DNA of 50,369 nucleotides, taken from the NCBI GenBank assembly GCA_007130885.1, contig SLRQ01000100.1, positions 1 through 50,369 on the forward strand, given 5' to 3'. The position numbers and the translations under genes are program-made. Below, piece by piece: positions 25,472 through 39,695 of the stretch. Position 1 is the stretch's first letter, and the number at the start of each line of letters is the position of its first letter. This stretch comes from Deltaproteobacteria bacterium (GTDB lineage: Bacteria; Myxococcota; Myxococcia; SLRQ01). The notes beneath the pieces are model-generated. The model was not told the DNA's origin. It did no database searches and worked only from the letters and a program-made list of their open reading frames with translations.

Positions 25472-26950
25472 TCATCGACGAACCTCGAATGAGACCCTGC
25501 GGTTGATGGCGCGGCCGAACTCGGTGGCCGGCGCCGCCGGCTGGTCGATCCCTTCCGCCCTGACGTCCAGGCGCTCACGCTCCACGCCTGCCTCAATCAA
25601 CGCCTCCAGGACGACATGGGCCCGCTCGAGGCTCAGCTCGCGGTTGAAGTCGGCGGAGCCGCGGTCGTCCGCATGCCCCACGACAGTCGCGCTCACACCC
25701 GAGTCCAGTAGAAGAACGGCCGCCCGCCGGATATCGCGCGCAGCCTCGGCATCCAAGGTCGCATCGCCCGTCCCGAAATGTATCGCCTTTCGCCGCAGCA
25801 TCTCCTCCGCGAACGATGAGCTTTCCAGCGAGCCTTGACGTCGTTCTTCCTCGAGGCGCTCTCGCCTGGCTCGCTCCTCCTCCAGGCGCTCGCGGTTCGC
25901 GGCCAGCTCGGCGGCGGCCTCTCGCAGCGAGCCCTCCAAGGCGGCACGCTCCGCGCGCTCCTCCGCGCGAGTGATCGCCTTTTCCTGCTCGATCATCAGA
26001 AGACAGATTGACGGCTCCATCGTGTCTGGCGCGAATCGGGAGCCCATGCCGATACTCACGAGCCCCCGAACCAAAGGCGTGGGCCCATTGGAGACGGGCG
26101 CTAAGCCGGCTCCGGCCTGGATATGGAGATCGCCCAGGTGGTATCGAGCACCCGCGAGGATCTCCAGTGAGGCACCCCGCCCAGCCGCGGAACCGGTCAA
26201 GCCGGCTACCGAGTGCCGATAGACGGCGTCCGCCATCCAGCGGACGCCCAAGGCGTGGTAGCCGCCGCCCACGCCGACGTGCAGGGTGTCGCCGAGGAGC
26301 TGGTCTCCTATGACCAGCGACCTACCGGTGTCGTACCCGAGTGTCCCGGCGACATCCCATCGCTCCTCCGTGAGGCCCACGGTAGTGGACACCTGGGCCC
26401 TGGCCCTATCCTCGCTGATGCCGCTGTGCTCTTCTCCGGTCGGAGCGAGCACGCCGGCCTGAAGAACCCAACCGACGGGCTCCTGTCCGGCTCCGTCCAT
26501 TAGTAACACTCGCGCACCCAACCGGAGGTCACCCAGCGCGGCGGAGCCGACCGAGCGTCGCGGGAGGTCCGTCCGTTCCACTCCGCCTTGGTACAAGAGT
26601 AGGGGCAGACCGGCGAGAATCTCGAGACGTCGCGTGGGGGACAGCGCGCCTTGAAGGAGCATTCCGCTCCTCGAGGATATCCAATCCACGTTCTCGTTCA
26701 CGCCGTCTCCGCGAACGTCGCCGGTGGCGACCTCGGCGCGGACGACCCGATGCTCGTATCCGAGCAGCGCGGAGAACTCCCAAGACCCGGGTTCCATGAG
26801 CCGCGAGGTGGGCAGCAAAAGCGTGCTACGCGAAGACGGCGCGGCAAGCCTCATGGTGAAAGCGTCAACGCTCTCCGCCGCGGCGGGAAAGGAGACGGCA
26901 ATCATCGAGGACGCCAGGAGGAGCGACGAGATGATACGTGAACGCTTCAT
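25472..26950 (-). CDS. OmpA-family outer-membrane protein: N-terminal beta-barrel-like domain, coiled-coil linker and C-terminal OmpA peptidoglycan-binding domain
   Basis: It has a signal peptide (MKRSRIISSLLLASSMIAVSFPAAA). It has a Glu/Arg coiled-coil (LEEERARRERLEEERRQ). The C-terminal OmpA_C motif is TVVGHADDRGSADFNRELSLERAHVV...NRRVSF. It is the last gene of the operon, 4 nt after the upstream gene's stop. The start could be 26983. Confidence 0.85.
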   Translation of the reverse strand: MKRSRIISSLLLASSMIAVSFPAAAESVDAFTMRLAAPSSRSTLLLPTSRLMEPGSWEFSALLGYEHRVVRAEVATGDVRGDGVNENVDWISSRSGMLLQGALSPTRRLEILAGLPLLLYQGGVERTDLPRRSVGSAALGDLRLGARVLLMDGAGQEPVGWVLQAGVLAPTGEEHSGISEDRARAQVSTTVGLTEERWDVAGTLGYDTGRSLVIGDQLLGDTLHVGVGGGYHALGVRWMADAVYRHSVAGLTGSAAGRGASLEILAGARYHLGDLHIQAGAGLAPVSNGPTPLVRGLVSIGMGSRFAPDTMEPSICLLMIEQEKAITRAEERAERAALEGSLREAAAELAANRERLEEERARRERLEEERRQGSLESSSFAEEMLRRKAIHFGTGDATLDAEAARDIRRAAVLLLDSGVSATVVGHADDRGSADFNRELSLERAHVVLEALIEAGVERERLDVRAEGIDQPAAPATEFGRAINRRVSFEVRR

Positions 26951-26954
26951 TGGG

Positions 26955-38900: not shown

Positions 38901-39695
38901 ACCGGAGGAAGGGCTCGCGTACGCCTGCTCCATGTAACAACGATCCCCATCTCCGCACATGTCATCATCGACACAGCGCTCGCAGAAGAACTCGCTGTGC
39001 GCCTTGGCATGCTGGAACGGCGGCCGGCAGATGGAGGCATAAGGCGTCCCACGTGCCAAGGCGTCCGGATCCAGCGCGTGATCGAACGGAAACACCGGCC
39101 GGGGGCTGGGATAGGGGCTCGTGCCCTCGAAGATGAGCTGGCAGCTGAAGGAGACCGAGCCACCGTCCGGCCGGTCCACCATCAATGCCTGGCAGACCCG
39201 CGGATCATTCGTGCAGGGGAAGGAGCAGACGCCCTGGCCCTCCTCGAAGGAATCGTCGATCTCGGCGATGGCGACGCGATCCCGACCGTCTAAATCCGGT
39301 CTGTTCAGCGCGAGATCAACCAGGCAGTTTCCACCGAATACCGCGCAGTCGAGATCATCGAAGCACCGACGGTAGTCGTCGGGCACGAAGGTCATCCTGA
39401 CTTCCTCTTCCGGTTCGGGCTCGTCGGGCTCGGGCTCCTTCTCTTCCGGCTCCTCGGGCTCCTTCTCTTCCTCGTCGGGCTCTTTCTCTTCCTCGTCGGG
39501 CTTCTCCGGCTCGTGTTCAGAGGCCTCGGCTTGGACGCAAACCGAGTCACGACAAACCAAACCCGGGCGGCACTCCCAGGTGAGCTCACACGCTGACCCT
39601 TGGGTGCCCGGCGCGGTGTCCCCGGGCGCCTGGGCACAAGAAACGCCCGAGAGGAAGAAGAACACGACCGCCAAGATCGCCAGACAGTGCTTCAT
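35946..39695 (-). CDS. large secreted protein (1249 aa): Cys-rich N-terminus with MopE-like putative metal-binding motifs, a predicted right-handed beta-helix, and a Gly-rich (PGRS-like) C-terminus
   Basis: It has a signal peptide (MKHCLAILAVVFFFLSGVSCAQA) and an acidic EP-rich linker (EKPDEEEKEPDEEEKEPEEPEEKEPEPDEPEPEEE). It has several C.D.D....P......CDG.D.DCDG motifs (VDCDDTNPDAYYDP...NCDG, CDGKDNSCDGVIDGS, CDGRDDNCDGVIDSE). It has a block NCDGLDGDLEWGVFVRP homologous to 43792-46503. The C-terminal ~250 aa are dominated by GGxGG repeats. Confidence 0.8.
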   Translation of the reverse strand: MKHCLAILAVVFFFLSGVSCAQAPGDTAPGTQGSACELTWECRPGLVCRDSVCVQAEASEHEPEKPDEEEKEPDEEEKEPEEPEEKEPEPDEPEPEEEVRMTFVPDDYRRCFDDLDCAVFGGNCLVDLALNRPDLDGRDRVAIAEIDDSFEEGQGVCSFPCTNDPRVCQALMVDRPDGGSVSFSCQLIFEGTSPYPSPRPVFPFDHALDPDALARGTPYASICRPPFQHAKAHSEFFCERCVDDDMCGDGDRCYMEQAYASPSSGSCVSSCEANTDCPFGFSCEAYGDDGATFCIPEAGTCGRCRDMDGNLRGTGRCGPIDDPITAVDCDDTNPDAYYDPNRMDHPFPEFCGDFDYNCDGLSDRQQQLGTAEHCAECFDVCSGAVDSVENAVRRCASDGDGYFCDVVCDSGFANCDGLEDTGCETRLGRQHIWAPDRDGDGRGCHESWKHFCPGDEPKGWVNNNLDCNDYDPTVYGGCDELGLAAAPELCDGKDNSCDGVIDGSVGMPADPSLLEGVGAQCDTGRPGICKAGRVECVNFGNTYKNPEPPRLECVSKEEPVLPPRCDGRDDNCDGVIDSEVDRWVEEGLAEPGHELGPMPCDADGVGACAQGFYSCALGDWVCVPNEPAEHDTADGVDRNCDGLDGDLEWGVFVRPVGGGGFLDGCDDNDGHNQRPVASLRRALQIACANGAPCRDIYVHNAVYTVDEALEIPTFEEEWEESPVRIFGGYESWAVCEGYDCHLEWQRGTGRARLTRQPPARQGGPRPFGHSYAAIEAKDDGPLSLLLEQVDVLARAPSSAQFLGDEESGPVIIGVRCGTKGCGNIELRDVVIEVQGAPAGGGGDLAAPSPQPNRDGLRGCCEITEDDCEGITRTAGYSFLIYRTRDLAVTEGSFRGEARSCPHGLGHDGGESSPFMWPVSDTRYSLRSNALDGSGWGLGGQAAVWEFMQDEGPGQPAERGVDGRGGGRGSHNLWSNPRAFLDEGKPLIDWMPRWGSHQPGVGGPGGGGGGGAGCMNSQFGNWETCMQQTVCFQDFEFFGQARGGGGGAGGCGGAAGRNGGHGGSAIGIVMHPPDSGEGSIVVADDRELRIVVGPGGDGGDGSDGGDGGAGGYGGEATVRNLFTGETLTPPVLQGGHGGDGAGGGAGSGGYGGHSMGIARLCDRWGANEERQCGMRLPPLMLAEPNRFIQVSPGGLPGLGGVGGEVGEKPLNPMREDSEDVRRPHPWGGSRGTDGWDGQEGRSHALYFTSH

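Follow-up and report, generated by a model that had tools for sequence, protein, structure and literature searches.

A compact cluster of four genes was found in the window (the whole stretch of 50,369 nucleotides that was analysed), and the two giant proteins at its centre, A and B, are predicted to be distant relatives of TcA, which in Tc (ABC) toxin complexes is the syringe-like, pentameric translocator subunit; this fold assignment is well supported by structural modelling. In the reading we favour, which is given a probability of about 60%, A and B are remote TcA homologues, shortened (~1450 aa) and anchored as lipoproteins, which would form a cocoon-less, surface-tethered pore or translocator with an adhesin-like partner.

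Organisation of the gene cluster

The cluster (positions 25472-39695) consists of four successive, tightly packed ORFs on the minus strand, encoding in order X, A, B and an OmpA-family protein (Table 1). At the X/A junction 26 nt are shared between the stop codon of X and the ATG of A, with GGAGGGGAGGAG read directly upstream of that ATG. At the A/B junction an ATG start gives a 10-nt overlap and a GTG start the classic 4-nt GTGA overlap (both choices appear among gene callers), while the TAA of B is followed by 4 nt (ccca) and then by the ATG of the OmpA gene. The overlaps of 26 nt and 10 nt and the gap of about 4 nt given in an earlier, sequence-only reading were therefore recovered when the junctions were read; the exact overlap lengths depend on the choice of start codon, the tight packing does not. 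A scan for promoters and terminators returned nothing above chance.

Export of all four products had also been proposed and is in agreement with their N-termini: lipoboxes are found in A (LTAC at residue 70) and B (LAAC at residue 39), the N-terminus of X is hydrophobic and closes with VSC (AxCG being the consensus in its family), and the OmpA protein carries a signal of the signal-peptidase-I type (AAA/E). Across the family, a lipobox was recognisable (regular expression) in 64 of the 83 full-length giants.

Table 1. Genes of the cluster and the parts of their products, with positions in the window
Feature	Position	Strand	Description
Gene X	35946-39695	(-)	1249 aa; Cys-rich lipoprotein; ORF, with homologues beside giants in ~30 loci
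X, Cys-rich core, residues 104-425	38421-39386	(-)	Part common to all X-like partners
X, MopE-type CDGxDxxCDG motifs, residues 490-499 and 565-574	37974-38228	(-)	Motif positions; PF11617
X, residues 650-687	37635-37748	(-)	FVRPVGGG..DGCDDNDGHNQRPVAS..AC; similar to the cap at the N-terminus of right-handed beta-helices
X, Gly-rich C-terminal region, residues 927-1178	36162-36917	(-)	At least 12 Gly per 40 residues
Giant A	31391-35971	(-)	1526 aa; TcA-like lipoprotein (predicted)
A, residues 99-451	34619-35677	(-)	Disulfide-knot cap (C99-C138), then beta-rich N-terminal domain; low confidence in AF2
A, residues 452-846	33434-34618	(-)	Helical domain; AF2 model positions 1-395, pLDDT mostly 85-97
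A, residues 847-897	33281-33433	(-)	Non-helical; four conserved Cys (C847, C853, C864, C873)
A, residues 898-1299	32075-33280	(-)	Long helices (69-94 residues) forming hairpins; predicted equivalent of the TcA pore-forming channel
A, hairpin tip, residues 1043-1077	32741-32845	(-)	GLPKNVGTSIDPSWKGR, then hydrophobic stretch MTIGIIAFAASTGLGVGALV
A, residues 1304-1526	31394-32062	(-)	C-terminal beta-rich domain; AF2 strands at model positions 853-1066
Giant B	26955-31400	(-)	1481 aa; paralogue of A along its full length, identical architecture
OmpA-family protein	25472-26983	(-)	ORF of 503 aa; likely start M12 at 26950, giving 492 aa
OmpA protein, putative N-terminal beta-barrel	about 25994-26872	(-)	Weak Phenol_MetA_deg match in one orthologue (L020)
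OmpA protein, peptidoglycan-binding domain	25523-25777	(-)	PF00691, residues 403-487

Architecture of the giant proteins

A and B share 40% identity over ~1470 aa, from end to end, and A-type and B-type orthologues are distinct across loci. Both had been described as falling outside known families, and this held: searches of Pfam, NCBIfam and PDB sequences with the single sequences, 32 family members and the family profile gave no match, the TcA models of Pfam and NCBIfam did not match A, B or any of the 32 members even at E <= 10, and the only annotation carried by the giants is 'hypothetical protein'. The motifs TCNAK and LRSCQP and the terminal YQD.FP.GQCE, first noticed in A and B, are invariant or nearly so among the 32 diverse members.

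The Cys residues of the N-terminal region (A 99-451) are invariant in the family and weak DUF7107 matches were obtained there in 16 of the 32 members; no Pfam or hhalign match was found for A residues 70-451, the neuraminidase-like and receptor-binding domains of TcA included. The more than 600 aa of heptad-like coiled-coil that had been described further along the chain proved to be something else, namely a conserved helical domain and, after it, long hairpins of helices. The Cys-containing segment between the two (A 847-897), judged by its position only, may be the equivalent of the stretched linker that joins shell and channel in TcA and has a trefoil knot at its base. The hairpin tip of A is conserved, amphipathic and contains Gly and Pro (the tip motif of B begins at residue 997), and hydropathy showed it to be only moderately hydrophobic across the giant family. 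The possibility that A and B constitute a binary alpha-pore-former of the ClyA/YaxAB type, with one hydrophobic and one amphipathic head, was considered and rejected because the difference in tip hydropathy (1.88 versus 0.61 here) is not kept across A-type and B-type orthologues.

Resemblance to TcA

Residues 452-1526 of A were modelled as a monomer with AF2 from a 60-sequence alignment (mean pLDDT 83.9, pTM 0.69). When the model was searched against the PDB with Foldseek, the best 21 matches were all TcA subunits (TcdA1, XptA1, XptA2, TcdA4, YenTcA and TcaA-TcaB), with E-values from 5.8e-12 to 8e-7, a probability of 1.00 and 620-1057 aligned columns; the matches ranked after them were generic coiled coils with E >= 6e-4. 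Alignments to prepore TcAs extended over ~950-1057 columns (the query has 1075 residues) and so took in the helical domain at A 452-846, a putative counterpart of the TcA alpha-helical shell, in which no profile match fell. TM-scores against TcA were low (0.13-0.20), as expected of elongated multi-domain chains, and do not give a global superposition.

A profile of the giant family (32 sequences) was also compared with a TcA profile (11 sequences) using hhalign, which returned two co-linear matches on the two most conserved parts of TcA. One lies at the channel tip (E = 4e-4, 71 columns), against the TcA tip motif (SepA DMLPNIYGLAVGGSRYGA), and the other covers the TcB-binding domain (E = 4.8e-4, 140 columns; SepA 2241-2371) and reaches both C-termini. 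The best E-value with a reversed profile was 0.04 and five column shuffles gave 0.6-0.9; the hhalign probabilities are modest (32-35%), and with ~12% identity between giants and TcA the likeness is one of fold and profile only. At these levels the C-terminal domain of the giants is the counterpart of the TcB-binding (funnel) domain, and the predicted structure also contains a match to the pore-forming channel domain, with its long hairpin of helices and the conserved loop at the tip.

The cluster had been put forward as a wholly novel system, with the proviso that the case would weaken if the giants had confident homologues of known function. By that yardstick the claim is weakened, since Foldseek and hhalign provide confident structural relatives of known function in the TcA subunits.

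Family spread and synteny

An exhaustive HMM search recovered 191 clusters of giants at 50% identity, ~100 of them full length (1413-1690 aa). Word-indexed homologue searches under-report the family, returning 3 matches for A and 2 for the X core, and C-terminal fragments only when a C-terminal profile was used. All 33 genome loci carrying giants are Myxococcota MAGs, Bradymonadia among them, and these uncultured hosts are probably predatory.

An X-like gene adjoins the giant in ~30 loci, wherever flanks were available, in either order and often with 4-nt overlaps. The synteny check asked for in the sequence-only reading recovered the X-A-B-OmpA order from 8 distinct loci and part of it from 5 more, which together with the junctions bears out the description of a conserved, co-oriented and tightly packed module. 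Duplication of the giant and presence of the OmpA protein are nevertheless confined to one clade (class-1), and ~19 loci that retain giant and X lack the OmpA gene; the conserved core is one giant with an X-like gene and not the four-gene unit. Apart from X-like and OmpA genes, clustering of the neighbours around giants yielded kinase and two-component genes and nothing else. When all ORFs of ~40 loci (flanks up to 10 kb where the contig allows) were searched by phmmer with SepB and SepC, neither TcB nor TcC was detected, and there is thus no known cargo. The Cys-rich gene downstream of the cluster (21742-25293) was considered as a further component and set aside, as it is not syntenic in other loci.

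X and the OmpA protein

The core of X shows 34-63% identity among 10 diverse members, with ~30 invariant Cys, and was matched by BLASTP in the X-like proteins of two loci (L006 and L010). X had been described as a combination of MopE-type metal-binding motifs, a beta-helix and a Gly-rich tail. The motifs are present, PF11617 scoring below its cut-off in X itself (21.8 bits, cut-off 27) and matching 21 of the 24 members of the X family that were examined (best E = 1.8e-36), and the Gly-rich tail is also present and kept in class-1 X proteins. What was found of the beta-helix is a motif resembling its N-terminal cap (FVRPVGGG, kept in the X-like proteins of class-1 and in some of those of class-2) and weak DUF1565 matches in 2 of the 24 members. 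The X family profile gave nothing beyond a weak MopE match in the PDB (E = 0.13), and no enzymatic domain was detected in X by Pfam, NCBIfam or PDB profile searches. Identification of X as TraA was rejected, no TraA model in NCBIfam being matched.

In the OmpA protein a signal peptide precedes a putative beta-barrel, which a charged helical linker joins to the OmpA domain that binds peptidoglycan. Of the two domains ascribed to it earlier, the OmpA domain is secure (PF00691, 45.5 bits against a cut-off of 27.2, with matches to OmpA domains in the PDB as well), and the barrel is represented by the weak match in a single orthologue listed in Table 1.

Alternative explanations

The sequence-only reading had envisaged an envelope-spanning or surface-fibre assembly in which the OmpA barrel is the anchor, A and B form coiled-coil stalks and X is an adhesive, metal-binding tip. 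Export of all four proteins, the peptidoglycan-binding domain, the adhesin-like Cys-rich, MopE and Gly-rich modules of X and the tight gene linkage would all suit such a structure, yet the helical region is modelled as hairpins and a globular helical domain in TcA topology rather than as an extended dimeric or trimeric stalk, it is conserved per position and not as heptads, and the OmpA protein is dispensed with in the ~19 loci described above. Given the resemblance of the giants to TcA translocators in both Foldseek and hhalign, the stalk arrangement was not borne out and is considered unlikely. About equally unlikely is that the TcA likeness is convergent or a modelling artefact, an unrelated helical family whose long helices and beta-sandwich mimic TcA in 3Di. 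The ~12% identity, the silence of the sequence models and hhalign probabilities of ~33% speak for such an artefact; it is harder to reconcile with the gap between generic coiled coils (E >= 6e-4) and the 21 TcA structures (1e-11), with an AF2 model of high confidence, or with two independent, co-linear profile matches which lie on the most conserved TcA elements, end at both C-termini and are ~100-fold better than the reversed and shuffled controls.

It may also be asked whether a TcA-like channel could serve the producer's own envelope, tethered in its periplasm or outer membrane together with the OmpA barrel for export or outer-membrane exchange; a TolC-type tunnel or the TraA/TraB exchange of Myxococcus would be loose parallels. 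Giants and X are lipoproteins, a gene for a cargo cocoon is absent from the ~40 loci, and the OmpA protein is laid out like TraB, with ~400 aa before a C-terminal OmpA domain. Its match to the TraB model (NF033763), however, reaches 36.1 bits against a cut-off of 700 and is confined to the OmpA domain, so the protein is not TraB; X matches no TraA model, the OmpA gene is missing from most loci, and the known TcA fold works on foreign membranes. We regard this as improbable, marginally more so than either of the other two.

Proposed mechanism

In the preferred reading, that of a tethered TcA-like translocator, the steps would follow by analogy with TcA. The giants would be exported via Sec/Lol, attached to the outer membrane or the surface of the cell and assembled into oligomers, and their hairpin tips would then be driven into a target membrane to give a pore or conduit. 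The N-terminal disulfide-knot cap and beta-rich domain could bind the target, and the segment between the shell-like domain and the hairpins would be stapled by disulfides. X might be a target-recognition or adhesin subunit decorating the complex, or might dock on the C-terminal funnel-like domain; in the clade with the duplicated giant (A and B), the OmpA protein would anchor the assembly to outer membrane and cell wall.

Judged from the hosts, which are Myxococcota with Bradymonadia among them, the giants would most likely serve to attack prey or competitors, either on contact or by way of vesicles. More tentatively, and with the odds against so specific a proposal, the family may represent a cocoon-less Tc branch of predatory Myxococcota, in which surface-tethered lipoprotein oligomers of a mini-TcA, armed or targeted by X in place of TcB-TcC, work as a contact-dependent weapon and perforate or deliver into the envelopes of prey bacteria. 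If true, no Tc-like system before it would have been directed against bacteria instead of animal cells, and it would offer a view of how the Tc syringe originated.

Comparison with known systems

Another myxobacterial system, TraA/TraB of Myxococcus, resembles the cluster in layout only: TraA is a Cys-rich surface protein and its partner an OmpA-domain protein of ~500 aa. TraAB has no TcA-like component, and X gives no match to TraA.

With the TcAs (Photorhabdus TcdA1, Xenorhabdus XptA1/XptA2, Serratia SepA) the giants share, in the predicted structure, a hairpin channel bearing a tip motif, a beta domain at the C-terminus and, putatively, a helical shell-like domain. Among TcAs the split forms come nearest, namely TcaA-TcaB of Yersinia pseudotuberculosis and YenA1/YenA2 of Yersinia entomophaga; in size and domain content the giants are like the TcaB/YenA2 half, and they too have a partner gene in the same operon. 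Receptor-binding domains are dispensable in bona fide TcAs, Yp-TcaATcaB being an example (PMC6795518). Unlike TcA, the giants have a lipoprotein signal, an N-terminal disulfide knot and many conserved Cys, their channel helices reach about half the TcdA1 length (an estimate from AF2 helix lengths), and TcB/TcC are not adjacent, the partner being a Cys-rich MopE-repeat lipoprotein. Lysis releases the classical Tc toxins, which are not lipoproteins; on pADAP, holin and lysozyme genes lie upstream of sepA. The hosts also differ, Myxococcota for the giants as against Gamma- and Betaproteobacteria or Bacillota for TcA; a survey of Tc loci placed 96% of TcC in Proteobacteria and 3% in Firmicutes, with Myxococcota not mentioned (PMC7861908), and a search of the available literature on Tc toxins in Myxococcota or Bradymonadia returned nothing relevant.

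A-component-like genes without a neighbouring cocoon gene have a parallel in 'orphan' TcA-like genes, such as those carried by plasmids of Sinorhizobium fredii and Rhodococcus, whose annotation is 'neuraminidase-like domain-containing protein'. Those genes, in contrast to the giants, have 24-27% identity to SepA (tblastn), encode at least 2500 aa and lack a conserved X-like partner. For the role proposed for X, a precedent by functional analogy may be seen in the accessory chitinases of YenTc, which are described as separately encoded subunits that decorate the TcA shell and aid target recognition (PMC12705794); X itself is not a chitinase.

A sizeable branch of A-like proteins invisible to sequence methods would show the Tc translocator fold to range more widely than is known, here in a half-size, lipid-anchored and disulfide-rich form that always has a different kind of partner, and would supply a concrete hypothesis of function for ~190 clusters of 'hypothetical' giants and their Cys-rich partners. 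It would raise the questions of what purpose a channel lacking a cocoon has, by what means predatory Myxococcota might kill their prey and how the syringe evolved. Work on Tc/ABC toxins has dealt with them as virulence factors, insecticidal and mammalian, and as devices for programmable protein delivery, and their known diversity, almost all of it proteobacterial and from Bacillota, is defined by the A-B-C trio.

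Organisation of the gene cluster

Four consecutive open reading frames were present on the minus strand, as an earlier sequence-only reading had placed them, encoding a Cys-rich MopE-repeat lipoprotein (X), two giant proteins (A and B) and an OmpA-family protein. The tight packing claimed by that reading was borne out when the junctions were read directly, while the exact overlap lengths vary with the choice of start codon. X and A overlap by 26 nt, with the X stop inside A, given an A start at the ATG at 35971, just 5' of which lies GGAGGGGAGGAG. The A/B overlap is 10 nt (A stop TGA) if B starts at an ATG, or a classic 4-nt GTGA if it starts at a GTG; both starts were chosen by gene callers on identical contigs. 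The B stop (TAA) is followed by 4 bases and then the ATG of the OmpA-family protein, which is M12 of its longest ORF and the point at which a typical signal peptide begins. Lipoboxes were identified in A (LTAC, residue 70) and B (LAAC, residue 39), and the hydrophobic N-terminus of X ends in VSC (X-family consensus AxCG).

Genes of the module (contig positions) and predicted regions of protein A (residue positions)
Feature	Position	Strand	Length	Source
X	35946-39695	minus	1249 aa	ORF
A	31391-35971	minus	1526 aa	ORF
B	26955-31400	minus	1481 aa	ORF
OmpA-family protein	25472-26983	minus	503 aa	ORF
Helical domain	A 452-846			AF2 model
Non-helical segment with four Cys	A 847-897			AF2 model
Four helices arranged as hairpins	C-terminal to A 847-897		69-94 residues each	AF2 model
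Short beta-hairpin loop, then hydrophobic stretch	A 1043-1055 (loop)			AF2 model
C-terminal beta-rich domain	A 1304-1517			AF2 model

The giant protein family

A and B share 40% identity across approximately 1470 residues, i.e. from end to end, and have no match in Pfam or NCBIfam. Five full-length homologs could be aligned throughout, including the helical middle, with many invariant cysteines, and the motifs TCNAK, LRSCQP and YQD.FP.GQCE, noted earlier from the sequence, are common to the full-length homologs. When 1.84 billion cluster representatives were searched exhaustively with a profile, 191 were identified with E <= 1e-3 (139 with E <= 1e-30), approximately 100 of them full length (1413-1690 aa), and a recognisable lipobox was found in 64 of 83 full-length giants. 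A word-indexed protein search returned three proteins only, missing even the paralog of the query; used alone, it would have put the family size approximately 50-fold too low compared with the exhaustive HMM search. The only source name met for family members was 'hypothetical protein'.

With each GTDB species represented by one genome, a scan gave 33 loci with giants, all 33 in Myxococcota MAGs (labelled Archangium, Vulgatibacter, Bradymonadia, Lujinxingia, Persicimonas, Polyangia and Sandaracinaceae). In four metagenome or MAG loci (L011, L012, L036, L041) two overlapping ORFs take the place of an intact giant gene, reflecting frameshifts, pseudogenes or assembly errors.

Similarity of the giants to TcA toxin subunits

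A first AF2 model based on four sequences was poor (pLDDT 50); a model of A 452-1526 based on 60 family members had a mean pLDDT of 83.9 and a pTM of 0.69. When this model was searched against the PDB using Foldseek, the best 21 matches were all TcA subunits, the translocators of Tc/ABC toxins (TcdA1 in prepore, intermediate and pore states, XptA1, XptA2, TcdA4, YenTcA and TcaA-TcaB), with E values of 5.8e-12 to 8e-7, probability 1.00 and 620-1057 aligned columns. Generic coiled coils (dynein, SMC, Rad50) followed at E >= 6e-4. The sequence-only reading had taken the giants for a coiled-coil fibre; the TcA-like helical hairpins and beta domain, together with conservation that is position-specific rather than heptad-like low complexity, overturn that view.

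A 32-sequence family profile was also compared, using hhalign, with a TcA profile of 11 sequences (SepA, the TcA of pADAP, and ten TcAs from plasmid records), giving two co-linear local matches. One pairs the TcA channel tip with A 1036-1111 (DGLPKNVGTSIDPSWKGR in A versus DMLPNIYGLAVGGSRYGA in TcA; E = 4e-4), and the other pairs the TcB-binding domain through the C-terminus with A 1370-1518 (...EGLPLAS...LEDITFHIEYVY in A versus ...FEGLPVDD...LSDIILHIRYTI in TcA; E = 4.8e-4). In controls, the reversed TcA profile gave a best E of 0.04 and five column shuffles 0.6-0.9. From model and profiles, the giants are concluded to be remote TcA homologs; the fold assignment itself carries a confidence of roughly 0.85.

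A 618-aa giant-like ORF on a Logan SRR34148159 contig (L058, 1-1857) aligned to A 484-881 and A 1342-1526, with everything between them that would form the channel (hairpins) missing; this reflects either a natural variant without a channel or an artefact of assembly.

Conservation of gene order

ORFs were called in all loci and compared with the proteins of the window. Class 1 loci, whose giants have 50-59% identity to A, carry the order X-A-B-OmpA in the window and in L004, L013, L015, L016, L017, L020 and L039; five truncated class 1 contigs are compatible with it. The order is X-A-OmpA in two Vulgatibacter MAGs, and in one class 1 locus A-B precedes an X-like protein that carries a fused Kelch propeller. 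Class 2 loci (33-40% identity to A) lack an OmpA gene and have one giant only; an X-like gene adjoins it, on the downstream side in 16 loci and on the upstream side in 3, with overlaps of 4 nt in L006, L038 and L058. As both classes keep the pair, the conserved core is giant plus X-like rather than the four genes proposed earlier; the second giant, a duplication, and the OmpA-family protein are clade-specific. The broader proposal of a conserved, unannotated, envelope-associated module holds.

Directly downstream of the OmpA gene, 21742-25293 (minus) encodes a 1183-aa secreted protein built from Cys-rich repeat modules and without a match in Pfam or NCBIfam; synteny of this gene does not extend to other loci, and in L004 an EGF-rich protein takes its place.

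Partner proteins and neighbouring genes

Members of the X family share a lipobox and a Cys-rich core of approximately 320 residues with about 30 invariant cysteines, and MopE-type motifs were found in 21 of 24; class 1 members also have a motif typical of a right-handed beta-helix N-cap and a Gly-rich tail. Searches with Pfam and NCBIfam, and of the X-family profile against the PDB, revealed neither an enzymatic nor a toxin domain in X. X as threaded cargo is not plausible, its size and disulfide richness being too great, and a role as a target-recognition or docking subunit is favoured by analogy. The YenTc chitinases offer a precedent for accessory subunits decorating TcA, according to PMC12705794.

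The C-terminal OmpA domain of the OmpA-family protein is solid, and its putative N-terminal barrel is weakly supported. Its assignment as TraB was rejected (36 bits against a cut-off of 700).

Several beta-propeller proteins lie beside the module. Upstream of X, a divergent gene at 39941-41872 (plus) encodes a lipoprotein that combines an RCC1 propeller with 8 Cys-rich repeats of the TNFR_c6 type; in two class 2 loci (L028, 17783-21559; L041, 17449-21324) the X-like gene is followed directly by one for an RCC1 + He_PIG protein, and an X-like protein in L032 (18940-24411) has a Kelch propeller fused at its N-terminus. Since the TcB beta-propeller docks onto the TcA funnel in Tc toxins, these are candidate docking partners, although RCC1 proteins are common in Myxococcota and their position may be due to chance.

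LuxR/GerE-type response regulators and/or histidine kinases flank several class 2 giant/X pairs, which suggests regulated expression; response regulators were seen in L006, L012, L028, L030, L035, L036 and L038, and HisKA_3 histidine kinases in three of these. Close to the module is a pair of ABC_tran and ABC-2 permease genes (42014-43722, plus), and an ATPase 35% identical to that of the window lies approximately 4.5 kb from the pair in L006 (18958-20648); this proximity is probably coincidental. The window also encodes an ice-binding-like protein with a Big_5 domain (11745-12947, minus), a sigma-54 activator with XylR_N and V4R sensor domains (14264-15928, plus) and a 931-aa protein containing fn3 (5216-8011, plus).

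Proposed function and comparison with Tc toxins

The giants most likely form an oligomeric TcA-like pore or translocator tethered at the surface or outer membrane, with X as an adhesin-like partner, and predatory Myxococcota would deploy the pair against other cells. Taken as a whole, this model carries moderate confidence relative to its rivals. No Tc-like system in Myxococcota was described in the accessible literature searched.

The giants match none of the curated TcA signatures, and Pfam and hhalign gave no match for their N-terminal 380 residues. Unlike TcA, they are lipoproteins with many conserved cysteines, and their channel helices are, by our own estimate, approximately half the TcdA1 length. 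No homologs of TcB or TcC, the cocoon parts, were found in any locus, in flanks of up to 10 kb as contigs permit, whereas in the classical Tc loci compared an SpvB/TcaC gene mostly lies directly downstream, with holin and lysozyme genes upstream in pADAP. Two plasmid loci, L055 (Sinorhizobium fredii pSF45436e) and L056 (Rhodococcus sp.), carry TcA-like genes (>2500 aa) that are recognisable by sequence and have neither TcB nor TcC next to them, so A components without a cocoon also occur outside Myxococcota. In content the giants are nearest to the TcaB/YenA2 half of split TcAs, and the module is a cocoon-less, lipoprotein, half-size Tc-like system.
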